Source: a virus
DNA: 64,000 bases
Strand: one strand, 5' to 3'
Virus record (IMG/VR): IMGVR_UViG_3300009184_000001
Coordinates: 1-64,000 of that record
Position 1 is the first letter of the stretch. Every line of letters begins with the position of its first letter. The translations under genes were made by a program, and so were the position numbers. Positions 49,893-58,638 of the stretch are shown one piece after another. Under the pieces are notes generated by a model. The model was given only the letters and a program-made list of their open reading frames with translations. It did no database searches and was not told where the DNA came from.

Positions 49893-50228
49893 TTAACTAG
49901 TTAGGTAGTCTAAAAGCTCGGGGTTGTCTTTTAGTACCATTAAAAGGGTTTCTTCGTACATTCCAATGAAGTAATGCTCTGTTTCTTCAAAGGTTAGCTT
50001 AGGATTCATTTTACTTCCTGTAAAAAAAGTAAATCTAATAGCATGTAGAATCTCGTGCATTAGCACTTGCTTCTTACGGGTTGTGGCTGCATCTATATCA
50101 ATAATAATCATGTTACGACGTTCTAGTGTATACCCGTAGTTATCCTCATACAACATGCCATCTTCTTTAGAACTGTGTTCTACTATGTCCCATATCTGAG
50201 TACCAATAAGTAACGTTTCTGGAATCAC
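49893..50228 (-). CDS. HExxH-containing phage protein (zincin-like)
   Basis: QVLMHEILHAI. Confidence 0.75.
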   Translation of the reverse strand: MIPETLLIGTQIWDIVEHSSKEDGMLYEDNYGYTLERRNMIIIDIDAATTRKKQVLMHEILHAIRFTFFTGSKMNPKLTFEETEHYFIGMYEETLLMVLKDNPELLDYLTS

Positions 50229-50398
50229 CTGTCAGACCCCCATCCTGAGCCTTTAAAGGTGAGTGACGGTGCTGAGAAGACACGAGTCATCTCTTTCTTG
50301 CACTCTAAACATTCTGGAACTATACGTTGCTCTGATATGGTTACAACGTGACTAACAGTAGTCTCACAAGTTTCACATTTGTACTGATAAGTAGGCAT
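50225..50398 (-). CDS. FmdB-family zinc-ribbon protein
   Basis: Hand translation: MPTYQYKCETCE...PECLECKKEMTRVFSAPSLTFKGSGWGSDR. Confidence 0.85.
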   Translation of the reverse strand: MPTYQYKCETCETTVSHVVTISEQRIVPECLECKKEMTRVFSAPSLTFKGSGWGSDR

Positions 50399-50400
50399 TG

Positions 50401-50502
50401 TTAAGCCTTAACTAATTTACGTTTGATTGGGTCAAATACTTTTGGAGACTTCTTAAAAGCCTTCCCACTATTTCTTTTATCGTTACGGGCACCTTTTGCC
50501 AT
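50401..50502 (-). CDS. 33-aa basic peptide
   Basis: AGGAG RBS; MAKGARNDKRNSGKAFKKSPKVFDPIKRKLVKA. Confidence 0.65.
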   Translation of the reverse strand: MAKGARNDKRNSGKAFKKSPKVFDPIKRKLVKA

Positions 50503-50528
50503 TTTATTCTCCTATCTGTTATTGTTCG

Positions 50529-50599
50529 CTGATTCTGTAGGAGTCGAACCTACGCTAACGGTGTTGGAGACCGCTGTGCTACCGTAACACTTAGAACCA
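50529..50599 (-). tRNA. trnW: tRNA-Trp (CCA)
   Basis: Acceptor TGGTTCT/AGAATCA, D arm GTG..CAC, anticodon arm GCGGT-CTCCAAC-ACCGT, T arm GTAGG-TTCGACT-CCTAC, discriminator G; CCA end not encoded. Confidence 0.92.
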
Positions 50600-50669
50600 T
50601 TAGTGCAACTACTCCCAAGGACGAAACAATGGGCGGAGTTATCCACGGCTAGTTGCCATACCGTGGCAG

Positions 50670-50749
50670 TGGACCAGCACAGAATTGAACTGTGGTCTTA
50701 CAGAGTCCTACTGGAGGCTTTGTTCTGCAATCGACACCATTTCTAGCCC
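50670..50749 (-). ncRNA. tmRNA tRNA-like-domain-only RNA (mini-ssrA)
   Basis: GGGCTAG/CTGGTCC-A acceptor with G3:U70; stemless D loop AAATGGTGTCGA; helix TTGCAGA/TCTGTAA; GAC linker; T arm CACAG-TTCAATT-CTGTG; no tag ORF. Confidence 0.8.
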
Positions 50750-50823
50750 TTGTGCCAGGATGATTGCCACTAGGCTCACGCGAGAACATACGGTGCTCCT
50801 GGCGAACACACGCTCTTGTAATT

Positions 50824-50851
50824 AGTATACACCAAAATTACTTGATGTCAA
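50824..50851 (-). promoter_or_regulatory. Sigma70-type promoter for the small-RNA operon
   Basis: TTGACA-16 nt-TATACT overlapping the end of the Hsp20 gene. Confidence 0.65.
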
Positions 50852-51371
50852 TTACCTTAGGTTTCTTTTCTTCAGGAAGCTCTTTCTTAAAAGTAATTAC
50901 TAGTAGTCCATTATCTAGTTCAGCACTTGTTACTACCCAGTACTCAGCAATAGCAAGAGATAGAGTAAAGTCTCTAGTAGCTATACCTTGATATAGTACT
51001 TCTCCTTTAGCCTTACTCTCCTTGTTACCTTGAATAGTAATAGTAGAGTCTTTAACAGTAACAGTAATTTCTTTTTTACTAAAACCAGCAACAGCTACAT
51101 TGAGTAGGTTAGTTTCATCATCCAATTGAACAATGTCGTATGGGGGATAGGTTGGTTTATTTGAGGTAATTTCCTTGAGTTGGTCAAGGATAGGTGACCA
51201 GCCAATAGATAGACGGTCTAGACGAGGGAATAGGTCAGCAATGGTAATAACCTTAGGCTTCTCTGATTGCCACTTCTTATAACTATCTTCGTGGATATTT
51301 GGACCCCAGGGAGTATAAGGTGGTTTTTTGTTTTTATCCCATGGGTCATTTGAATATGGTTGTATATGCAT
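50838..51371 (-). CDS. Small heat-shock protein Hsp20 (IbpA-like)
   Basis: YPPYDIV, VAVAGF, YQGIATRDF, AELDNGLLVI, PEEKKPKVIDI. Confidence 0.93.
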   Translation of the reverse strand: MHIQPYSNDPWDKNKKPPYTPWGPNIHEDSYKKWQSEKPKVITIADLFPRLDRLSIGWSPILDQLKEITSNKPTYPPYDIVQLDDETNLLNVAVAGFSKKEITVTVKDSTITIQGNKESKAKGEVLYQGIATRDFTLSLAIAEYWVVTSAELDNGLLVITFKKELPEEKKPKVIDIK

Positions 51372-51507
51372 TTTGTCTCCTTAGACGACAACTGTGCTAC
51401 GATACCATTTTCACAAACTGTCCGAAGCACAGTATTAATTTACGACACCCAATTGGCGTGTCTATATTTATATTATATATTTAATGACTATTTGTCAAGT
51501 TTAACTA

Positions 51508-51705
51508 TTATCTAAATCCTGGATTAGCTTTATGCCATGCTTCAACTACTTTAGACACATGGTCTTCTTGTTCTATCTTAGGCGCTTCTGACAGCTGCTG
51601 AGACACGACAGGGTGAGCTTCTTCCCTCTTCTTAGGAGTTTCTGGCCATGAACCTGTACGTTCATAGTGCTCTTTACGAGCCCAGTAGGCTGCATCTCTA
51701 GCCAT
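51508..51705 (-). CDS. Hypothetical protein
   Basis: 65 aa, AAGGA RBS; first gene of the minus-strand block. Confidence 0.65.
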   Translation of the reverse strand: MARDAAYWARKEHYERTGSWPETPKKREEAHPVVSQQLSEAPKIEQEDHVSKVVEAWHKANPGFR

Positions 51706-51824
51706 AGCTATCCTTGTTCAACAACGAGAGGCTTTTTTACGGCCCCGCCACTTTTTTAAGTCTTAATTAGTTTATACCTTAATGTCTATGATAGTATGTC
51801 AAAATAAAGATATAAGATAAAGGA

Positions 51825-52181
51825 TTGAATATGTCTAAGAAAAACCCAAAAGCTACTATGCAGAGCTTAAAGAGTCGTCTAGTATCCCACCCATTAGCTT
51901 TAGGTGTTGCTGGAGCTATGGCTGCTGGTGGAGGAAACCGTGTTGGTGAACCTGCAAACAACTTTGTTGGAGATTTTGCTCAGCCTTATTTTGATATGAT
52001 TAGTGCTCACCCTAATGGTGCTCCTGCAGCTGGTGCTGCTATTGGTGCCGGAGTTGGTGTAATTAGTGCTTTGGTAGCACAGCGTCGTGATGCTAAAGCT
52101 TATCACCAACAGCAGAATGTTGCTGCTAGAACTGCCAGCTTAAATCCTCATATCACTAGAAACTACAAAAACCCTAAGTAA
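51825..52181 (+). CDS. Hypothetical Gly/Ala-rich membrane-associated protein
   Basis: AAGGA RBS (likely ATG 51831); two hydrophobic Gly-zipper-like stretches. Confidence 0.65.
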   Translation: MNMSKKNPKATMQSLKSRLVSHPLALGVAGAMAAGGGNRVGEPANNFVGDFAQPYFDMISAHPNGAPAAGAAIGAGVGVISALVAQRRDAKAYHQQQNVAARTASLNPHITRNYKNPK

Positions 52182-52203
52182 TCCTTAAAACGCCCCTGCC
52201 ATT

Positions 52204-52491
52204 ATGAATCCTTATACACAGGACATGTCTTGCCCCGGGGGATGTGGGCAATCTATAACCTATAATAAAAGCAAAGACACCTGGTCTCATGCAGGTCTAC
52301 ACGATAGTTCTTGTCCATTTCATCAATATGAACCTATGGACCACAGACATGTATTAAATATTAGGTGGGGTAGACTTAAATTCAATGACCAGGGTGAAAT
52401 TGAAGAGGTAAAAAGGGAACCTAAGCCTGTTCCTGAGCCCAAATTAGCTGATGTAATCAGTCTGGCTCAATATCGTAAGAAAAAATCTTAA
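52204..52491 (+). CDS. Hypothetical Cys/His protein
   Basis: CPGGC..WSH...C; ends ADVISLAQYRKKK. Confidence 0.6.
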   Translation: MNPYTQDMSCPGGCGQSITYNKSKDTWSHAGLHDSSCPFHQYEPMDHRHVLNIRWGRLKFNDQGEIEEVKREPKPVPEPKLADVISLAQYRKKKS

Positions 52492-52498
52492 AAAACAC

Positions 52499-52527
52499 TT
52501 GACAAGCTCTTAACTAGGCTATAGATT
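52499..52527 (+). promoter_or_regulatory. Sigma70-type promoter
   Basis: TTGACA-17 nt-TAGATT. Confidence 0.6.
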
Positions 52528-52612
52528 AGCCGTATGAAGTTAATTGAGCAGTTTTATCTCCCATCAATGAAACACTCTCTACGGGCCTCACAAGGGCTTA
52601 CAGGGGCATTCT

Positions 52613-53119
52613 ATGCCTAGACCGACACCGCCATGTGGAACTAGGGCCGGATATCGTCTTCATGTTAGGGTGCAGGGGCGTCCTAAGGATGAATGTGAGC
52701 TATGTTACAACGCTGAACTACAGTACTGGCGTGACAAAAGAAACCCAAACCATCCAGATTACCGTGGAAAAGAAATAAACAAAATAAGAAGGCGGGCTAC
52801 GTTCCTCAAAAAACATGGCCTACCTAAGATTAACTACCGGATACGCAATGAAACCCTAGAAAAACGTAATCCACGTAAATGGGGCTGGGAGCACTACACT
52901 ACAGAGATGATAATAGAGCGTTGGGGCATCATTTGCTATCTTTGCAGTGAAGAGATAGACTTAGAGCTATCAAGGACAAGTCTAGAAGGTCTCCACCTAG
53001 ACCATGTCATACCAATATCAAAGAAAGGCTGCGATATCATCGATAATATAAAACCCACACATGCACGCTGCAACCTCGCCAAATCAGACAAAATGTGGCT
53101 AAATGGCGAACTCGTTTAG
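52613..53119 (+). CDS. HNH endonuclease with N-terminal zinc finger
   Basis: CGT.AGY..H..C..C; ICYLC...HLDHVIPISKKG..NIKPTHARCN. Confidence 0.88.
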   Translation: MPRPTPPCGTRAGYRLHVRVQGRPKDECELCYNAELQYWRDKRNPNHPDYRGKEINKIRRRATFLKKHGLPKINYRIRNETLEKRNPRKWGWEHYTTEMIIERWGIICYLCSEEIDLELSRTSLEGLHLDHVIPISKKGCDIIDNIKPTHARCNLAKSDKMWLNGELV

Positions 53120-53488
53120 GCTACTGCTTAATATTAAAAGAGCTCAACCGTGTTTTTCACCTGGCGATAATATATCCTGCTTGCGTTAGGGTTGTCCCAA
53201 AATTACCGTTATCCTAACACCATCATAAATAGTGATGGCACACTACTTATGTGAATAAGGTTTCGTGCTACCTATGGCGTGTAATTCCTATTTATAGGCA
53301 TAACCCTTAGTAATACGGCTAAGGGTTATGCTCATAAAGTAATCGCTGACTATCTCCCCTTATTGCTACGGCACGGCTTATTCATTAGGGTTATCTCCCC
53401 TAATGTGTGAACTGTGCCGTAGTTAGGTGCAGTAAACGCTATAACAACCGTTATAGTGAAACCCTTTACGCTTAGGAGCGTGATAGCG

Positions 53489-54100
53489 ATGAACACTACA
53501 ACATCGCAAACAGTATTAGTTGCTGACTCAACTGACGTAACTGGCAACGATGTGCCAGTATCCCTGTTTGAACGTGCCCTTGGTACGTTCACTGGTGACG
53601 GTGTTGGCTCTATCTTCAGGACTATTCCTGAATTAGAGCGACTAGTCCTTACTGAAATGGTGGCTCGACTAGAGTCCACTATGGAAGTAAACGGCGTAAC
53701 ATTCACCGTATCAGAAGCGCGTAGTTCCTTTAAGGCACTACACGTTCAGGGTGTCAAGACAGGCAAGCGAACCTGTGAGCAACTCCCAACTTGGGCAAAG
53801 AAGTCTGATGCCCCAGAGACAGAGTACGCAGAGACCATCATAGATAAAGAAATCTATGACATCTTCACAGTTGAGCGTGGCTTCATTGACGTAAAGTCAA
53901 ACGAAGAGGGTGTCCGTGACTATGTAGGTGTTCCTTGCCTGCTTAGAGGAGCAGATGCTCGCCTGTACAACGCCATTGACGAGTTCATTGGTGAACTTGG
54001 TATGGGCAGAAGCCGTCGTGGCAACAAGGGGTACTGGTCAGAGTATGACTTGGACGAGTTGGTCGCCGAGATGAAAGCCAGAATAGCTGAAATTAGCTAA
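53489..54100 (+). CDS. Hypothetical early protein
   Basis: Start moved to ATG 53489 after AGGAG; 203 aa. Confidence 0.75.
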   Translation: MNTTTSQTVLVADSTDVTGNDVPVSLFERALGTFTGDGVGSIFRTIPELERLVLTEMVARLESTMEVNGVTFTVSEARSSFKALHVQGVKTGKRTCEQLPTWAKKSDAPETEYAETIIDKEIYDIFTVERGFIDVKSNEEGVRDYVGVPCLLRGADARLYNAIDEFIGELGMGRSRRGNKGYWSEYDLDELVAEMKARIAEIS

Positions 54101-54291
54101 TCTGGCTACTGCTCAACACACGGGCAGGCTAAGTGAGTCTATCACCAGACTTACGAAGCCTGCCCGTTGCTGTTATCAAGTAAGACGTCGAGCAACGTCT
54201 ATAAATAATGCAGAAGTTACGCACGCTCTATGCTCCTAACTGCTAGGGAAAGTTAGGCGGGAAAGCCAGTGTTATTCCGATAAGGCAGTCA

Positions 54292-54338
54292 GCCCTAGAG
54301 ACACTTTAGGTGTAGGTGTGCAAAGCCCCTCTAGGGCA
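54292..54338 (+). ncRNA. Candidate 47-nt tRNA-like RNA with no anticodon arm
   Basis: GCCCTAG/CTAGGGC-A acceptor, ACAC-TTTAG-GTGT arm, AGGTG-TGCAAAG-CCCCT T-like arm (4 of 5 pairs). Confidence 0.45.
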
Positions 54339-54364
54339 CGCTCATTATAGAAAGGAGCCAAACT

Positions 54365-54586
54365 ATGGCTAAGAGCAAGTATGTCTTTGGAAATGCTTAC
54401 TATAGCAAAGCCCTAGCTATGAAAGATTACTATTATCATAGGGCAAAAGCAGTGAAGTGGTGGTGCGAGACATTTAACTCAGCACCAACTGTAAGGTCTG
54501 ATAGAAGAACCTTACGTAAAGCAAAACAAGTCACTAACTGGGACTTGTCAACAATGAATCTCTGGGAAGGAGAGCAGTATGTGTAA
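54365..54586 (+). CDS. Hypothetical protein
   Basis: GAAAGGAG RBS, 73 aa. Confidence 0.7.
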   Translation: MAKSKYVFGNAYYSKALAMKDYYYHRAKAVKWWCETFNSAPTVRSDRRTLRKAKQVTNWDLSTMNLWEGEQYV

Positions 54587-54872
54587 ACACACAGAGATAA
54601 TAACAGCAAGCCGTAATGCTGTTGTAGCCCTAAGGGCTAAAGTCCAAAGAAAACTACTTGTATTAGAGAACCCTTTTACAAGCGGCTCTGTAATAGGAGA
54701 GTTCTCTAGGCAAGAGAATGCCTATGACTTTCTCCTTATGGAAATAGAAGAGGTTGGCTGTAAGTCCTGTAAATATGATGCTCTAGACCCTGGTAGAAAG
54801 AGTAACTACCTTAGGTTTCTAGATGATTATGTTACACACTTTGCTAATGGTAAGTGTGAAGACTGTGAGTAA
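54579..54872 (+). CDS. Hypothetical Cys-rich protein
   Basis: CKH, CKSC, CEDC; AGGAG RBS. Confidence 0.7.
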   Translation: MCKHTEIITASRNAVVALRAKVQRKLLVLENPFTSGSVIGEFSRQENAYDFLLMEIEEVGCKSCKYDALDPGRKSNYLRFLDDYVTHFANGKCEDCE

Positions 54873-54931
54873 GTCTTTCTCATAGAAGCAAGGATAGTAT
54901 TTGGGTTATCTATCCTCTAAGTCTTCTCTAT

Positions 54932-55105
54932 ATCTCTACAAATAAGACCCCCGTAGAGATGAATAAAGGGGGCAAGTCGTCCTAGTAGCGCACTCCAAGT
55001 GGCATTCCCCTAGAAATACGCAGGGTGAGTAAGGTTCGAATCCTTACAGTGTGTGAAAGGCTCTCTCTATATAATAAGTCCCCCATAGAGAGCAGTAAAA
55101 GGGGG
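54932..55105 (+). repeat. Two imperfect direct repeats, each an H-type pseudoknot (54932-54972, 55063-55105)
   Basis: Shared pattern TCTCTA-x-AATAAG-x-CCCCC-x-TAGAGA-x-TAAA-GGGGG-CAA with compensatory changes. Confidence 0.65.
54988..55055 (+). ncRNA. Degenerate tRNA-like element
   Basis: Perfect T arm GTAAGG-TTCGAAT-CCTTAC stacked on GCGCACT/AGTGTGT; no canonical anticodon loop. Confidence 0.5.
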
Positions 55106-55251
55106 CAAAGCCCCCTTAGACCCCCGTACAAGGGCGTTCTAAGGGTAACCAAAGGGGCTTGGCTACGACCAAGGCAAGCACAACCGCTGGCGGTAGCTGT
55201 CTTCTCTAGAAGTAGTCAAGCCCCTCAACCTATATGAAAGGTAGGTAAGCA

Positions 55252-55437
55252 ATGACTAAATCAGTCAAGCAAGCAACACCTGTTACACCTGTTACACCAG
55301 CTAACACTAGCAAGCGAGCAATCGCTAGGCTCAAAGTTAGAGAAGCAAAGCACGGTGCAGAATGTCTTTACTGTGATGGTAGTGACCACAACCGTAAGCA
55401 AGTGTGGGATGCTGAAACACACAGTTGGGTAAAATAA
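55252..55437 (+). CDS. Hypothetical protein
   Basis: GAAAGG RBS; TPV repeat; CLYC..H. Confidence 0.7.
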   Translation: MTKSVKQATPVTPVTPANTSKRAIARLKVREAKHGAECLYCDGSDHNRKQVWDAETHSWVK

Positions 55438-55580
55438 TGACTGAGCACAATCAATATTATGTAAAGTTCAAGCCATTTGATATAGCCGTAGCCCTAAAAG
55501 GTAACGCTGTGCCTAATGGTTGGGTAAGGATAAGCCATAGTATGTGGCTTATGTTAGTAGCACTAAAGACAAGGAGATAA
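55437..55580 (+). CDS. Hypothetical 47-aa protein
   Basis: TAATG coupling; MTEHNQYYVKFKPF... Confidence 0.55.
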   Translation: MTEHNQYYVKFKPFDIAVALKGNAVPNGWVRISHSMWLMLVALKTRR

Positions 55581-55582
55581 CA

Positions 55583-55738
55583 GTGCAACTTATATGTAAT
55601 GAGTGCGACTTCAATAGAGTCGCTAAATATAGACAGAGTGCTAAGCGTTTCTTGCGAATGTTTCACGTGGAACATTGGCACTACGCACAGTTGATTAGCT
55701 GTTCACAAGCATTCCGTAACAAGCCAAGGGGTATGTAA
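55583..55738 (+). CDS. Small C2H2-like protein
   Basis: GTG after AAGGAG; ICNEC...FHVEHWH. Confidence 0.6.
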   Translation: MQLICNECDFNRVAKYRQSAKRFLRMFHVEHWHYAQLISCSQAFRNKPRGM

Positions 55739-55956
55739 TGGCTATGTGTAGGAAGTGTGACTCCGAGGGTCACAAGACTAAGGCAGAGTTCGCAATAATT
55801 GTGAAACGAGCCCTGCATACATACAAAGATAACAACCAAGTAGATAGGTCATTTTTTGTAGATGTAAGTCCACGTATCAAGGCGTATCTATGCCAACCCT
55901 GCCTGAAATACACAAAAGAAACCGAAGTAGTTCAGTTTGATACTGAAGTGCTCTAA
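55738..55956 (+). CDS. Small zinc-binding protein
   Basis: CRKC ... CQPC. Confidence 0.65.
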   Translation: MAMCRKCDSEGHKTKAEFAIIVKRALHTYKDNNQVDRSFFVDVSPRIKAYLCQPCLKYTKETEVVQFDTEVL

Positions 55957-55970
55957 CAAAGGAGATAACA

Positions 55971-56153
55971 ATGGCTAGTTCGCTAACCGAATTACAGTAT
56001 AGGCAAGGCACACTCACTAATAGATTAGAGAGATTGCTAAGCTTACAATCTATGATGGCTAACCCTGACAAGCGTTTAGAGAATGATATAAGACTGACAC
56101 GCTTGTCCCTAGATGATGTGAGGAAACAAATTGCCAACAGAAACAATCGCTAG
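55971..56153 (+). CDS. Small coiled-coil protein
   Basis: AAGGAG RBS, 60 aa. Confidence 0.7.
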   Translation: MASSLTELQYRQGTLTNRLERLLSLQSMMANPDKRLENDIRLTRLSLDDVRKQIANRNNR

Positions 56154-56454
56154 TATTGCCAGCCAGCCTAGCCAACACAAACAAACTAAGTGGGTCACAA
56201 CCACTAAAGATTACCCAACATATAGTCTTACAGCACAGATGGGTAGAACCATCAGACGACTTCGTACAAACCAAGATAAAACATTACGACAACTTGCTGA
56301 CACAAGTTATATAGCATTGTCTTTCTTGGCTGAAGTAGAAACAGGTAAAAAGAACGCTAGTCCACATACTGTTGAAAGCATATGCATAGGGCTAGGAATA
56401 ACAACGCTAGAGTTCATGCAAGAACTCTGCGTAACAATAGAAAAAGGATGGTAA
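56131..56454 (+). CDS. XRE-family helix-turn-helix regulator (true start probably further downstream)
   Basis: GRTIRRLRTNQDKTLRQLA...LSFLAEVETGKKNAS...ICIGLG. Confidence 0.85.
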   Translation: MPTETIASIASQPSQHKQTKWVTTTKDYPTYSLTAQMGRTIRRLRTNQDKTLRQLADTSYIALSFLAEVETGKKNASPHTVESICIGLGITTLEFMQELCVTIEKGW

Positions 56455-56456
56455 CA

Positions 56457-56756
56457 ATGGCTTATATAAATAGGTCCCCGCATCATTTGCACTATGACCC
56501 ATCAAATGATGAGTCAAAAAAATATGCTATGGAAAAAGCAAAACAATCATTCCTACAAGCATTAATAGATGGGCTTGAAACTAGGCAGTACACTTGGGAA
56601 GTTATAGGCGACCCAGACCTTGACCGTGTTCATCTAATCTCTTGTAAAAATGAGCAAGGAGCAAAAGAGTTTGCTAGCAAAGGGCTAGTAAATGGTGCAT
56701 CACTTGGTGCACTAATTGAATCACGAGTGTTGAAGTTGGAGGATTTCAATGAGTAA
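56457..56756 (+). CDS. Hypothetical protein
   Basis: Start moved to ATG 56457 after AAGGA. Confidence 0.65.
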   Translation: MAYINRSPHHLHYDPSNDESKKYAMEKAKQSFLQALIDGLETRQYTWEVIGDPDLDRVHLISCKNEQGAKEFASKGLVNGASLGALIESRVLKLEDFNE

Positions 56757-56919
56757 AAATATAGATATACCTAGAAAGCTATACTATCGCCTGATGTTCT
56801 GGCACCAGTTAGCCAAGTTTATATATATGCTACACCGTAAGGCTAAGTGGAGAGAAGACTTAGTTGGCATCAAAATCCATAACAACAATAACAAACAACT
56901 GAAAGAAGCAAGCAAATGA
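56749..56919 (+). CDS. Hypothetical 56-aa protein
   Basis: GGAGG RBS; MSKNIDIPRKLYYRLMFW...; overlaps both neighbours. Confidence 0.6.
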   Translation: MSKNIDIPRKLYYRLMFWHQLAKFIYMLHRKAKWREDLVGIKIHNNNNKQLKEASK

Positions 56920-57182
56920 CACTAGCAGAACAATACCGTAATGTAATCGCTGACCTAGAACAGGACATTGGTTATGAAGAGAGTGCACAAGAGACAGCAC
57001 TTAGTGTGCTCAAAGGCAGACTACACGAGATAGAGAACGTGTTGCCTGACCTGTTCAACGAAGACATTGACAAGATGTTTAGTTGGATACCTGAAGTGTT
57101 TGAAGAGACACCTACCACTCAAATTGTCGATGAGTTGAATGCTAGATTTAGTAAGTTCTCTCAAGAAGACGACAACAAATAA
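56916..57182 (+). CDS. Small acidic protein
   Basis: 88 aa, Asp/Glu-rich, ATGA coupling. Confidence 0.7.
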   Translation: MTLAEQYRNVIADLEQDIGYEESAQETALSVLKGRLHEIENVLPDLFNEDIDKMFSWIPEVFEETPTTQIVDELNARFSKFSQEDDNK

Positions 57183-57237
57183 GATTCTTTTAGCAATTCC
57201 GCTAACAGATAGCTATAACAAATAGAAAGGCACCACA

Positions 57238-57645
57238 ATGGCAGTAACAACAAGTATCCGAGTAGATACACAAGCAGCAAAGGCTAAACTTCAGGCTCGT
57301 CTTGACGACCACAAGAAAGCATTTGCTGCATACAATAAGGCAGTTGAAAAGTATGAAACTGACCTTGATAAATGGGCACTAAAGGTAATTAAGCACAAGG
57401 ATGCTATTAAAGTATCTGTAGGTCACGGTAACTCAGTAGGTGTAGAAGTTCCTCAGTCTATGCGAGACAGTAAGCCAGTTCATCCAAGGGAGATTGACTT
57501 TGCTGGTATGTTGAACTACCGTAGTTCATACAACTCACCAAGTGATGTAGAGGCCATTGAGAATGCCTTAGGTATTCTTGGGATTGCTATTGATGCAACA
57601 ATTAACGTCAATGCAATCAAAGGTGTTGGCTCATTCCTTAAGTAG
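57238..57645 (+). CDS. Hypothetical protein
   Basis: GAAAGG RBS, 135 aa. Confidence 0.75.
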   Translation: MAVTTSIRVDTQAAKAKLQARLDDHKKAFAAYNKAVEKYETDLDKWALKVIKHKDAIKVSVGHGNSVGVEVPQSMRDSKPVHPREIDFAGMLNYRSSYNSPSDVEAIENALGILGIAIDATINVNAIKGVGSFLK

Positions 57646-57646
57646 T

Positions 57647-58240
57647 ATGTAAGGAAATGGCACTAGGAGCAGAGATGTTCCTAGTGTCTAACCTTTACAT
57701 AAAGTAAAGGACGTAGTGCCTGTCTAGAACCAAGAGCTAAGATGCAATAGGACAAAAAGCATCCACTAGCCCCATCAAAGTAAGGGAAATTCCCCCAAAC
57801 GTGGACAGAGTCGATTAGGTTGTATGAGCATTTGTAACTCTAGAACTAGACAGGCACTACAAATTAAGAATTCTATGTAGCAATACATAGCATCTGGAGT
57901 GGGCGGCCAGTAAAAAGAAAACCCTATGTCGGTGCAAGACCGAACTTCTATGCTGTGGCGAACATAGTCGGAGTTGCTGTGGTTTTAATAGTAGTTGAGT
58001 TAGCGATTGCTGAGTGCGTTACTACTGGTCATTGTCCACTTAGTTTGACTAAGAATAATACGTAAGACGAACTCACATCAAGCCCCCTGTTACACTGTCA
58101 CACAATGAGTTTATATAACTAGTGCTGATGTAGCAGGGGGCTTGCTTATAACACAGAGCGGCTAGCCCGACACAAACACCTAGCCCATAAGTTTCCGTAG
58201 CAATACGGTTTGCTATTAGCAACCCCGCTAATAGCCAAAT
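57647..58240 (+). ncRNA. Candidate large structured non-coding RNA region
   Basis: About 600 nt with no ORF; many long stems, including a perfect 15-bp inverted repeat (57713-27/57846-60), two GTA-GCAA-TAC hairpins and a T-loop-like hairpin. Confidence 0.55.
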
Positions 58241-58263
58241 ATATATAGAAAGGTTGATGTCCT

Positions 58264-58638
58264 ATGGATAACAACGTGCCTAAGATTACTCAAGATAATC
58301 TACCTAATGATAGCTATTTCATTGTAAGAATGTGTGTTCATTGTCAGGATATTACAGACACTATAGCAGTACCATTTCATATGCCATTCCCTAGTGTACG
58401 AATTGCTAAAGCAATGATGCTAGGAATGATTGAAGATGCTATAGATGACGACAAGTCAGTGAACTTTACTGATGGAGTTGTACACATGACAGATGATGAG
58501 GGTGAGCAACACAAGTACATTCAGGCTATCATCCACATCACCAACAAGATTGTTTGGCGTCCAGGTGACGACGAGCAGATAGACTCTAAGTTCAACGACA
58601 TCATTGGTGCTCTTGACTTAGATACCCCAACCGAATAG
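58264..58638 (+). CDS. Hypothetical acidic protein
   Basis: GAAAGG RBS; CVHC. Confidence 0.7.
   Translation: MDNNVPKITQDNLPNDSYFIVRMCVHCQDITDTIAVPFHMPFPSVRIAKAMMLGMIEDAIDDDKSVNFTDGVVHMTDDEGEQHKYIQAIIHITNKIVWRPGDDEQIDSKFNDIIGALDLDTPTE

Follow-up and report, generated by a model that had tools for sequence, protein, structure and literature searches.

The minus strand of a freshwater phage genome (94 kb, 42% G+C) carries a short RNA operon in which an 80-nt element, assigned here from its sequence and covariation to the TLD-only tmRNAs, is followed by a conserved pseudoknot and a tRNA-Trp. This mini-tmRNA appears to be the tRNA-like domain (TLD) of tmRNA alone, without the mRNA-like domain, and the operon probably tampers with the ribosome-rescue system of the host. 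The reading that we favour, and regard as fairly likely, is that of one real RNA operon plus several unrelated folded mRNA leaders, with the mini-tmRNA blunting host tagging and trans-translation. The analysis covered a window of 64,000 nucleotides, positions 1 to 64,000 of the viral record, and coordinates refer to this window. A sequence-only reading had described tRNA-shaped elements alternating with pseudoknots at two loci, together with strongly folded non-coding DNA, and had taken them for a single set of decoy or effector RNAs released by host tRNA processing. The minus-strand RNAs, twin pseudoknots and structured gaps of that description are borne out; a contiguous 1.6 kb of non-coding DNA is not, and the tRNA-like items of the plus strand are weaker than described. 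Its interpretation is supported for ribosome rescue at the minus-strand locus, where homology places one RNA in the TLD-only tmRNA family, and does not extend to a single system, to type III toxin-antitoxin mimicry or to nuclease decoys.

The minus-strand RNA operon

The operon (50503–50851, minus strand) lies directly after hsp20 and consists of a promoter, a leader hairpin, the 80-nt mini-tmRNA, a 62-nt pseudoknot module and tRNA-Trp(CCA), followed by small protein genes. The four RNA elements of the sequence-only reading (stem, TLD, pseudoknot, tRNA-Trp) are all real by covariance models, folding and ARAGORN. The putative sigma-70-type promoter (TTGACA-16-TATACT; 50824–50851, minus strand), from which the RNAs would be transcribed, overlaps the end of hsp20, matches the consensus at 11 of 12 positions, is the top site within 50300–52000 and is kept in related contigs (L002/L058 and L088). 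The 5' leader hairpin (50754–50803, minus strand) has a 7-bp closing stem and two small inner hairpins and stops 4 nt short of the mini-tmRNA. Relatives have a hairpin in the same position, with a different sequence in each, and over 55 family members the 60 nt upstream of the mini-tmRNA fold with a mean z of −2.0 versus −0.5 for the 60 nt downstream.

The mini-tmRNA (50670–50749, minus strand) has a 7-bp acceptor stem, a T arm of 5 bp and 7 nt and no anticodon arm. Its hallmarks are G3:U70, A73, a stemless GG..UCGA D-loop and GAC before the T arm, and its helix 2 is capped by 19 nt where tmRNA normally has pseudoknots and the tag reading frame. It is present as a single copy in the genome, scores 92.1 bits (E = 1e-25) with our covariance model (Model R1) and is nearly invariant across five related contigs despite their differing flanks. 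A degenerate pattern search matched more than 117 viral stretches, and 121 matches were examined in their loci; 64 of these have at least 6 of 7 acceptor pairs (7 of 7 in 63) and the full 5-bp T arm, and represent 56 distinct sequences. In bacterial genomes the same pattern gave 120 matches, none of them genuine. The family thus counts 56 or more distinct members from phages and covaries strongly: in an alignment of 36 sequences 95.8% of the cells are paired, and the unfiltered helix 2 reaches 95% pairing, each of its seven pairs having compensatory changes. G1:C72, G2:C71 and A73 are invariant and G3:U70 is found in 35 of the 36. Members often stand inside tRNA arrays with tRNA-like spacing; in relatives of this phage the TLD is 1–5 nt away from a tRNA.

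The element was not detected by the Rfam models of the tmRNA clan (including RF00023), the Rfam tRNA model or ARAGORN. Because the tmRNA-clan models and ARAGORN miss it, its kinship with tmRNA rests on Model R1, on the link to the TLD-only tmRNA of phage DS6A and on a comparison by eye with E. coli ssrA. Model R1 matches the published DS6A molecule, which was outside the training set, over its full length at 70.4 bits (E = 5.5e-19), and gives about 14 bits on real tRNAs. The DS6A match argues that the mini-tmRNA belongs to a kind already known and rarely annotated.

What is new here is that the spacer pseudoknot is a conserved module tied to mini-tmRNA or full-length tmRNA. It measures 62 nt (50605–50666, minus strand) and folds into two hairpins (1 and 2), with a further helix formed by pairing of the loop sequence GCAACU with the tail AGUUGC. 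Copies were found in four further distinct contigs (L165, L329, L405/L421 and L422) and score 98–107 bits with Model R2; 98.9% of the cells are paired, with compensatory changes at five pairs, and the GCAACU/AGUUGC helix never varies, so that covariation speaks neither for nor against it. In related phages the gene directly before the module is a mini-tmRNA or, in L329 and L422, a full-length tmRNA; these two contigs have neighbouring genes in common with this phage. The module is missing at about 50 other mini-tmRNA loci, so that the family as a whole does not depend on it as a partner; within this phage group it is a conserved companion RNA that goes with either form.

The tRNA-Trp (50529–50599, minus strand; anticodon CCA, discriminator G, CCA end not encoded) was found by ARAGORN and by Rfam RF00005 (53.7 bits), and is 94–96% identical in L002, L003 and L004. 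It is the sole decoding tRNA of the whole 94-kb genome. The first protein gene past the RNAs (50401–50502, minus strand) has its own ribosome-binding site and encodes a basic peptide of 33 aa, with no Pfam match and with 69–81% amino-acid identity in L088, L058, L059, L057 and L091; in L329 and L422 this gene lies immediately upstream of the full-length tmRNA. It is followed by a gene for a 57-aa FmdB-type zinc-ribbon protein (50225–50398, minus strand; Pfam Zn_ribbon_8, E = 9.7e-10), also kept in relatives.

Folded leaders and gaps on the plus strand

The plus-strand structures are probably cis-acting leader elements of early genes, either translational operators or processing or stability sites, and nothing ties them to the minus-strand operon. 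The about 1.6 kb of strongly paired non-coding sequence claimed for the start of this region corresponds to four intergenic gaps of 1,597 nt in total, strongly folded relative to shuffles (z = −6.2, −4.9, −3.7 and −10.5) but not contiguous; the start of the region is coding, with three conserved protein genes at 51825–53119 (a 118-aa ORF, a 95-aa ORF and an HNH endonuclease, Pfam E = 5.5e-8). The 336-nt gap at 53120–53455 (plus strand, z = −6.2) contains inverted repeats that form two long near-perfect hairpins; its sequence is unconserved, but the equivalent gap in L058 is also highly structured (z = −11.3). The 618-nt gap at 57646–58263 (plus strand, z = −10.5), likewise with inverted repeats, holds a hairpin (57646–57702), a 148-nt rod with a 15-bp closing stem (57713–57860) and another hairpin (58079–58144); it is partly conserved in L059, where its equivalent folds at z = −5.4. 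Immediately past the stop codon of a 214-aa gene there is a conserved long hairpin (54120–54167, plus strand; an inverted repeat), and the segment 54098–54182 is 96%, 92% and 87% identical in L058, L057 and L088, which exceeds the identity of the flanking genes.

The supposed anticodon-less mini-tRNA (54292–54338, plus strand) proved to be a 47-nt compound hairpin and lies some 10 nt before the ribosome-binding site of a 73-aa gene. Its 9-bp outer stem, which encloses small hairpins, shows one compensatory change in L058 (A:U to G:C); the element folds at z = −2.2 and matches no tRNA model. Its supposed T arm is a copy of a recurring G-run/CAAAG/C-run hairpin, and its 3' half repeats a GCAAAGCCCC..TAG motif that occurs also at 55105.

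Of the pseudoknot–tRNA-like–pseudoknot arrangement described farther along the plus strand, the two H-type pseudoknots are confirmed. Copy 1 (PK1; 54932–54972) has an 8-bp stem 1 and a stem 2 of CCCCC with GGGGG, and is identical in L180. The region of copy 2 (55063–55115, the pseudoknot itself 55063–55105) includes a competing GGGGG-CAAAG-CCCCC hairpin, and the pairing of the GGGGG strand with this downstream CCCCC run suggests a possible switch. Across five copies, compensatory changes are seen at four pairs of stem 1. Copy 2 opens a leader of about 190 nt that reaches the ribosome-binding site of the gene at 55252, contains a long-range stem (inverted repeat, 55153–55166 with 55212–55225) and is conserved in L059, L088, L091 and L180.

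The tRNA-shaped element between the two copies (67 nt; 54988–55054, plus strand) was recognized by a structure scan and folding. Positions 1:72 and 3:70 of its 7-bp acceptor stem are G:U pairs, its T arm is perfect (GGTTCGAATCC, 6 bp, loop UUCGAAU) and it has neither D nor anticodon arm; it was matched by none of ARAGORN, the Rfam tRNA model and Model R1. This insert is known, letter for letter, from one other contig (L180, 94% identical) and nowhere else; L059, L088 and L091 have the twin-pseudoknot leader without it. It may be a recent tRNA-derived insertion into the leader.

Proposed action of the operon and alternatives

In the mechanism that we propose, host RNase P would cleave the 5' ends of the mini-tmRNA and tRNA-Trp, and host 3'-end enzymes and the CCA-adding enzyme would complete both RNAs, thereby setting free the leader hairpin and the pseudoknot. 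Since the two flank a non-tRNA pseudoknot behind a single strong putative promoter, such end processing would yield three or four discrete RNAs. Alanyl-tRNA synthetase (AlaRS) would charge the mini-tmRNA with alanine, as proposed because G1:C72, G2:C71, G3:U70 and A73 are present. The product would then bind EF-Tu and SmpB of the host, the complete phage genome having neither a detectable SmpB gene nor a full-length tmRNA, and would compete with host tmRNA for SmpB and stalled ribosomes. The mini-tmRNA has no resume codon, so that no degradation tag could be added, and the most likely net effect would be that tagging and trans-translation are blunted during infection. A molecule similar to the DS6A TLD-only tmRNA strongly inhibits tmRNA, perhaps by titrating SmpB (PMC4131195, repeated in PMC11915505), this being an engineered molecule in E. 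coli and not the RNA described here or its host.

The direction of the effect could be the reverse. A full, tag-encoding tmRNA stands beside the same module at the equivalent place in related phages, the two forms seem to take each other's place, and the locus could supply rescue capacity instead of blocking it: with SmpB, the mini-tmRNA would enter stalled ribosomes and accept the nascent chain, the ribosome would be recycled and the product would stay unmarked for proteolysis. Infection would then gain extra rescue capacity, and phage proteins would be spared. Peptidyl transfer to a TLD-only tmRNA has been seen in vitro (PMC3895274), jakobid mitochondria and some plastids have kept message-less tmRNAs, which are considered functional (PMC11915505), and the strict alanine identity set would be needless for a pure SmpB sponge. 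However, a peptidyl-mini-tmRNA without a resume codon has no obvious release route and would require a further factor, and the sole functional test in the literature, as related in the passage of PMC4131195 that cites Mao et al. 2009, reports tmRNA to be inhibited irrespective of whether the molecule can be charged. The L329 record is 71% complete, which makes its lack of a mini-tmRNA tentative. We consider such a helper role doubtful, though the most serious competitor of the inhibitory role.

A single system, in which both loci would release decoys directed at ribosome rescue, at tRNA-cutting nucleases and at type III toxin-antitoxin systems, seems to us distinctly unlikely. It would account for the alternation of pseudoknots and tRNA-shaped elements at two loci, for a stretch of about 150 nt with PK1 and the tRNA-like insert that is unchanged in L180 between flanks diverging by about 6%, and for the additional, unclassified tRNA-like RNAs that surround the minus-strand module in other phages of the group; small RNAs of unknown role in the T4 tRNA region (PMC3014915) provide a precedent. 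Yet the two types of pseudoknot share neither sequence nor topology, the plus-strand one persists in a conserved leader of phages that have no tRNA-like element there, the plus-strand tRNA-like RNA fails all tRNA and TLD models, and the 47-nt element is a hairpin beside a ribosome-binding site. An antitoxin of the ToxI type needs tandem arrays and a toxin partner; neither was found, nor was there an Rfam match, and nothing in the analysis points to tRNA-targeting nucleases. Decay is still harder to reconcile with the data, and we give very little credence to a degenerate tRNA-Ala or to an attachment-site tmRNA fragment of a temperate phage, even if phages that integrate into ssrA carry such fragments (mentioned in PMC9004378) and the element escapes the standard finders of tRNA and tmRNA. 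Its two TLD halves are joined as a complete mini-gene, compensatory change maintains every helix across at least 36 diverse phages, its sequence holds while the flanks diverge, and it is often found inside tRNA arrays, spaced as a tRNA would be; lacking a 7-nt anticodon loop, it is not a D-armless tRNA-Ala.

Comparison with known systems

The closest known relative of the mini-tmRNA is the CDS-less tmRNA of DS6A, listed as "TLD only" in PMC4131195 (tmRNA Website; PMC11915505; JN698994, 28478–28557). Both are 80 nt long and have the same architecture: a 7-bp acceptor stem, G3:U70, A73, a stemless GG..UCGA D-loop, a short helix 2 with a small hairpin cap, a linker and the T arm, and no tag reading frame. 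The linker before the T arm is GAC in the mini-tmRNA family and CAC in DS6A. DS6A is a Mycobacterium phage (an actinophage) whose element has 70% G+C, in contrast to the 42% of the freshwater phage, and the element lies between two protein genes, unannotated in the record. Unlike it, the mini-tmRNA described here is in an operon with a pseudoknot module and tRNA-Trp and has its own putative promoter and leader hairpin.

Full-length tmRNAs (ssrA, RF00023, and the phage tmRNAs of L329 and L422) share with the mini-tmRNA a GGG... acceptor with G3:U70, a UGG(N)(N)UCGA(Y) D-loop, (G/A)GAC before the T arm and a ...UCCA end. The ends of E. coli ssrA follow the same layout (GGG..., UGGAUUCGAC, ...GGAC, T arm, ...UCCA). 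With 80 nt as against about 344–363 nt, the mini-tmRNA lacks the mRNA-like domain, the resume codon, the tag reading frame and the pseudoknots PK1–PK4 of tmRNA. In L329 and L422 the module follows the full-length tmRNA at the same junction, A|CUGC.

The known non-tRNA small RNAs among phage tRNA genes have the same placement and presumably the same release by end processing, with no relation in sequence or structure; here, by comparison, the mini-tmRNA can be assigned by homology, and the other RNA is a pseudoknot tied to tmRNA-type genes. For the plus-strand leader (54932–55251) the best analogue is the pseudoknot in the leader of T4 gene 32 mRNA, a translational operator (PMC3014915). In both cases an H-type pseudoknot lies in the 5' leader of an early or middle phage gene, some way upstream of the ribosome-binding site; the sequences are unrelated, and in the present phage the pseudoknot is duplicated and its GGGGG strand has an alternative partner downstream.

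The 80-nt element of the minus strand

The virus record is complete at 94,440 bp with direct terminal repeats, and the window holds its first 64 kb. It derives from freshwater metagenomes. The minus strand carries the genes up to about 51.7 kb, and from 51.8 kb onward they lie on the plus strand. The region studied here comprises the end of the minus block and 6.5 kb at the start of the plus block, which carries small early-type genes. None of the GenBank phages was similar to this region, to its 80-nt element described below, or to the full-length tmRNA plus pseudoknot of a related phage contig, L329, beyond the T arm. ARAGORN and Rfam call one RNA gene, tRNA-Trp(CCA) at 50529-50599 (-) (RF00005, 53.7 bits). 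The sequence-only reading had stated that only one of the tRNA-shaped RNAs is able to decode, and this is right because tRNA-Trp(CCA) is the sole tRNA of the whole 94,440-bp genome. Between 49.5 and 59 kb, a permissive search with Rfam returned nothing believable beyond this gene; matches to Ocean-VII (17.9 bits against a cut-off of 53.5) and to mascRNA (15.7 bits against a cut-off of 42.5) were rejected as chance or partial likenesses.

Fold stability does not single out the minus-strand RNAs (z = -0.18 against shuffles for the 335 nt, and z = -0.9 to -1.5 for the single elements), and comparative evidence was therefore used. Relatives were retrieved via the neighbouring hsp20 gene and then aligned. 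An 80-nt block at 50670-50749 (-) proved near-invariant across five contigs, with flanks that are divergent or missing. The acceptor stem of this block has 7 bp (GGGCUAG with CUGGUCC), with G:U at 3:70 and a discriminator A, and the alanine identity set is complete (G1:C72, G2:C71, G3:U70, A73). Unpaired AAAUGGUGUCGA follows the 5' acceptor strand, and a stemless D-loop analogue (GG plus UCGA) reads AAUGGUGUCGA; its counterpart is UGGAUUCGAC in E. coli ssrA and UGGUUUCGAC in the L329 phage tmRNA. Helix 2, with 7 bp closing 19 nt, is found where a tmRNA has its mRNA-like domain and pseudoknots, and the free-energy fold agrees. The 3' part consists of AGAC and a 5-bp T arm, CACAG-UUCAAUU-CUGUG. 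The element has only 80 nt, and the mRNA-like domain with its resume codon and tag frame is absent from it. We refer to it as a mini-tmRNA, that is, the tRNA-like domain (TLD) of a tmRNA without the message.

ARAGORN and Rfam miss the mini-tmRNA because it has neither an anticodon arm nor a message domain. No match at E <= 10 was obtained with RF00005 for it or for the plus-strand elements at 54988-55054 and 54292-54338, and ARAGORN also called none of the three; the tmRNA-clan Rfam models did not match the mini-tmRNA at E <= 10. The phage genome contains one copy of the element. RF00023 had no match at E <= 1 in the whole genome, ARAGORN found no tmRNA, and the phage has no SmpB gene. Two other identities were considered and set aside: a D-armless tRNA-Ala, as there is no 7-nt anticodon loop, and an attachment-site fragment, as both halves are present and covary.

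A phage-borne family and its known relatives

The family was collected with a degenerate pattern of the D-loop analogue and T arm, which matched more than 117 IMG/VR stretches. The loci examined contained 121 pattern matches, 64 of which combined a full T arm with at least six of the seven acceptor pairs; all seven pairs were formed except in one match. These 64 represent 56 distinct sequences. GGG at the start and UCCA at the end were present in all but two of the 64 filtered matches, with CCA next in many. The same pattern applied to one genome per bacterial species returned 120 matches, none of them real; therefore, the viral matches are not due to chance and the element is phage-borne. In an alignment of 36 sequences, 95.8% of cells were paired. 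Helix 2, which played no role in the family filter, was 95% paired, with compensatory changes at all seven pairs. G1:C72 and G2:C71 occur in all 36 sequences and G3:U70 in 35 of them, and A73 is invariant. The motif AAUGG..UCGA is also invariant across the family, partly by construction because it was part of the search pattern, into which the GAC linker and a T arm with the loop UUCRAYU were built as well. The covariance model of the family, R1, gives 92.1 bits for the window element; ordinary tRNAs reach about 14 bits with it. A same-strand tRNA lies within 500 nt of the mini-tmRNA in 21 of the 56 family members.

Mycobacteriophage DS6A was listed with a "TLD only" tmRNA, and a molecule similar to TLD-only tmRNA, whether chargeable or not, was described as strongly inhibiting tmRNA, perhaps via titration of SmpB (PMC4131195). 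The DS6A and inhibition statement is repeated in PMC11915505, where message-less forms in some plastids are also reported, and peptidyl transfer to TLD-only tmRNA was observed in vitro (PMC3895274). R1, which was built without DS6A, matches the DS6A sequence (JN698994, 28478-28557) over its full length with 70.4 bits and E = 5.5e-19. Like the mini-tmRNA, E. coli ssrA and the L329 phage tmRNA have at their ends the D-loop motif, a GGAC preceding the T arm, and a terminal UCCA. From the DS6A match and the tmRNA-like ends, the window element is thus, as judged by sequence, a further member of the known DS6A-type TLD-only family. Message-less tmRNAs are almost unannotated, and they occur in many uncultivated phages (0/120 for the bacterial pattern matches). 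Phages may thus commonly target the pathway of ribosome rescue and tagging during infection.

Leader structures of the plus strand

The start of the plus-strand region had been described as about 1.6 kb of strongly paired non-coding sequence. The strong folding and the length stand, but the 1,597 nt are distributed over four plus-strand gaps (53120-53455, 54101-54364, 54873-55251, and 57646-58263) and are not contiguous, and the start of the region is coding. It contains, on the plus strand, a 118-aa ORF (55% identical in the related contig L058) and a 95-aa ORF (identities of 97%, 74%, and 59% across three relatives). An HNH endonuclease gene at 52613-53119 (+) is among the first plus-strand genes (Pfam E = 5.5e-8; 80-83% identical in three relatives), and a 214-aa ORF (+) of the region shows weaker conservation. 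Each of the four gaps folds far better than shuffles, as do the equivalent gaps in two relatives, and long near-perfect hairpins are found within them. A scan of these gaps for consensus promoters and terminators gave nothing above background.

Several features of these gaps can be recorded beside the main results. The gap after the HNH gene in L058 (813-1187, -) has z = -11.3 and is more structured than that of the window, without sequence similarity to it; its building blocks are CCUAACG and GCCCUAG palindromes, which are repeated. A hairpin at 54098-54182 (+), directly behind the 214-aa gene, is conserved at 96% in L058, 92% in L057, and 87% in L088, the neighbouring genes being less conserved, and it may be a conserved terminator, processing site or small RNA. 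The oriented 12-mer picked out elsewhere by the sequence-only reading, CCCGACACAAACA, lies at 58167-58178 and also in the equivalent intergenic region of contig L059, and may be a phage-specific promoter or signal.

The twin H-type pseudoknots at 54932-54972 (PK1) and 55063-55105 (PK2) on the plus strand are real, as had been claimed: stem 1 has 8-9 bp in five copies from four phages, with compensatory changes at four pairs, and a CCCCC/GGGGG stem 2 is kept in all five copies. They open a leader of about 190 nt, whose conservation extends to the ribosome-binding site in front of the gene at 55252, and the GGGGG run is able to pair alternatively with a CCCCC run further downstream. The closest known parallel is the leader pseudoknot of T4 gene 32 (PMC3014915). 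Three related contigs (L059, L088, and L091) have a single pseudoknot and no tRNA-like element. In the window, the duplicated pseudoknot flanks a 67-nt tRNA-shaped insert at 54988-55054. The same layout is present in L180, a 94%-identical contig, in which the insert and PK1 are unchanged over about 150 nt and the flanks differ by about 6%; this sequence comparison hints at constraint. Exact searches for the tRNA-like insert in IMG/VR found nothing, and one near-identical metagenome contig was found. The insert does have a perfect T arm, GGTTCGAATCC, but it fails all tRNA and TLD models. The 47-nt "mini-tRNA" at 54292-54338 turned out to be a stem of 9 bp, in which L058 shows one compensatory change, and what was taken for its T arm copies the G-run/CAAAG/C-run hairpin found at 55105. 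Searching for the GGGGGCAAAGCCCCC hairpin returned hairpins of other phages that are unrelated to it.

The elements on the plus strand are separate structures that act in cis within leaders, and the duplicated pseudoknot among them is uncatalogued. The proposal of a unified decoy system across both loci is not supported by these results. The suggested link to type III toxin-antitoxin systems likewise found no support, as no tandem array was found. A ToxI-like antitoxin, that is, an array of repeats of about 34-36 nt by an endoribonuclease toxin gene, was set aside on this ground: Tandem Repeats Finder returned only trivial 15-24 nt repeats in 50000-58500, the twin pseudoknots are 131 nt apart and not in tandem, and Rfam had no match.

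The putative minus-strand RNA operon and its pseudoknot module

The description of the minus strand as small RNAs punctuated by tRNA-shaped folds was a fair one, and the locus is real and probably an RNA operon. A putative promoter (TTGACA-16-TATACT, 50851-50824, -) agrees with the consensus at 11 of 12 positions and overlaps the end of hsp20, and a leader hairpin at 50754-50803 (-) has its end 4 nt upstream of the mini-tmRNA. Relatives carry hairpins at this position as well, and their sequences are unrelated. Across the family, the 60 nt upstream fold better than shuffles with a mean z of -2.0, and the 60 nt downstream, with a mean z of -0.5, do not. In relatives, tRNA-Trp or tRNA-Asn follows 1-5 nt after the mini-tmRNA. 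Past tRNA-Trp lie genes for a conserved basic peptide of 33 aa, a zinc ribbon of the FmdB type and an M78-like protein. The highly basic peptide (50401-50502, -) accompanies the mini-tmRNA or a tmRNA in near and distant relatives and belongs to no Pfam family; it may be a partner that binds RNA or the ribosome.

The 70-nt spacer between the mini-tmRNA and tRNA-Trp of the window is missing from the closest relatives and contains a 62-nt pseudoknot module (50605-50666, -), for which Rfam has no match. A loose pseudoknot pattern gave 115 chance matches, and a strict pattern was used instead; it recovers the module in the related contigs L165, L329, L405/L421, and L422. Contigs from four other metagenome runs include relatives, some of them ordered TLD, pseudoknot, tRNA-Trp. 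Over the two hairpins, pairing reaches 98.9% in the five distinct copies, with compensatory changes at five pairs, and the loop-to-tail helix, GCAACU with AGUUGC, is invariant in all five. A tRNA-shaped RNA precedes each copy, which begins one base past the discriminator A of that RNA. This upstream RNA is a mini-tmRNA in the window and in L165, a full-length phage tmRNA with the tag ANTSAYALAA in L329 (6236-6579, -) and L422 (6622-6964, -), and another unclassified tRNA-like RNA in L405. In L329 and L422 the module is directly after the tmRNA and the gene of the 33-aa basic peptide just upstream; the basic peptide, zinc ribbon and M78-like protein are common to both contigs and the window phage. 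The mini-tmRNA was not found in the L329 record, which is 71% complete. R2, the covariance model of the module, finds it at none of about 50 other mini-tmRNA loci, and therefore the module is no general partner of the mini-tmRNA family. The tmRNA-linked pseudoknot module is uncatalogued, and both R1 and R2, applied here to pattern-seeded subsets of the sequences, could be used to annotate RNAs that standard tRNA/tmRNA finders and Rfam miss.

Other RNAs were seen around the module. The one before it in L405 (2419-2489, +; the same in L421) is a tRNA-shaped RNA of about 71 nt with a 5-bp acceptor stem (GCCCC/GGGGC), a long central stem and a T arm CTAGG-TTCGATT-CCTAG, without G3:U70, and neither ARAGORN nor R1 calls it. 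After the module, L165 (1880-1950), L405 (2558-2650), L422, and L329 have, instead of tRNA-Trp, a GGACUG...CAGUCCA sequence that looks like yet another anticodon-less tRNA-shaped RNA. All five module copies contain a six-codon frame, AUG GCA ACU ... UAA (about 50651-50671, -, in the window). Its middle codons vary with the compensatory stem changes, and the frame probably arises merely as a consequence of the helices. The reading of this frame as a trans-supplied message was rejected, as the module also follows tmRNAs with their own tag frame and the codons are base-paired.

We propose that a single precursor would be driven by the promoter at the end of hsp20 and that RNase P, together with 3'-end enzymes, would cut it at both the mini-tmRNA and tRNA-Trp. 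The CCA end must be added because neither of these RNAs encodes it. The leader hairpin and the pseudoknot would be freed, as by-products or as functional RNAs. AlaRS should charge the mini-tmRNA because it carries the full alanine identity set, and the charged molecule, with host SmpB and EF-Tu, would enter stalled ribosomes. It could not add a tag because it has no resume codon. Competition with host tmRNA, by which tagging and rescue would be blunted, is the favoured reading because of the published inhibition result. A role of the mini-tmRNA in rescue without a tag is nevertheless well in play: the alanine identity is strictly conserved in the family, and full tmRNAs are swapped in at the locus in relatives.

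The module, which has an identical junction with full-length and mini-tmRNAs, might itself be a dedicated partner of phage tmRNA-type genes, either as a 3'-end-shaping signal for RNAs without CCA or as a released companion RNA acting jointly with them on SmpB or the ribosome, an idea that we consider rather unlikely. If it were true, the phage would have here a modular "rescue-hijack" cassette from which at least three functional RNAs are freed by tRNA-type processing, and full and message-less tmRNAs would be swappable alternative payloads. One module behind either a full or a mini-tmRNA provides a natural comparison of whether a phage tmRNA serves to supply rescue, to block rescue, or to avoid the degradation tag. 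For small RNAs among phage tRNA genes there is a precedent in RNAC and RNAD of T4 (PMC3014915), and a location of this type fits the pseudoknot module, which lies 1 base past the upstream discriminator and 5 nt before tRNA-Trp under one putative promoter.
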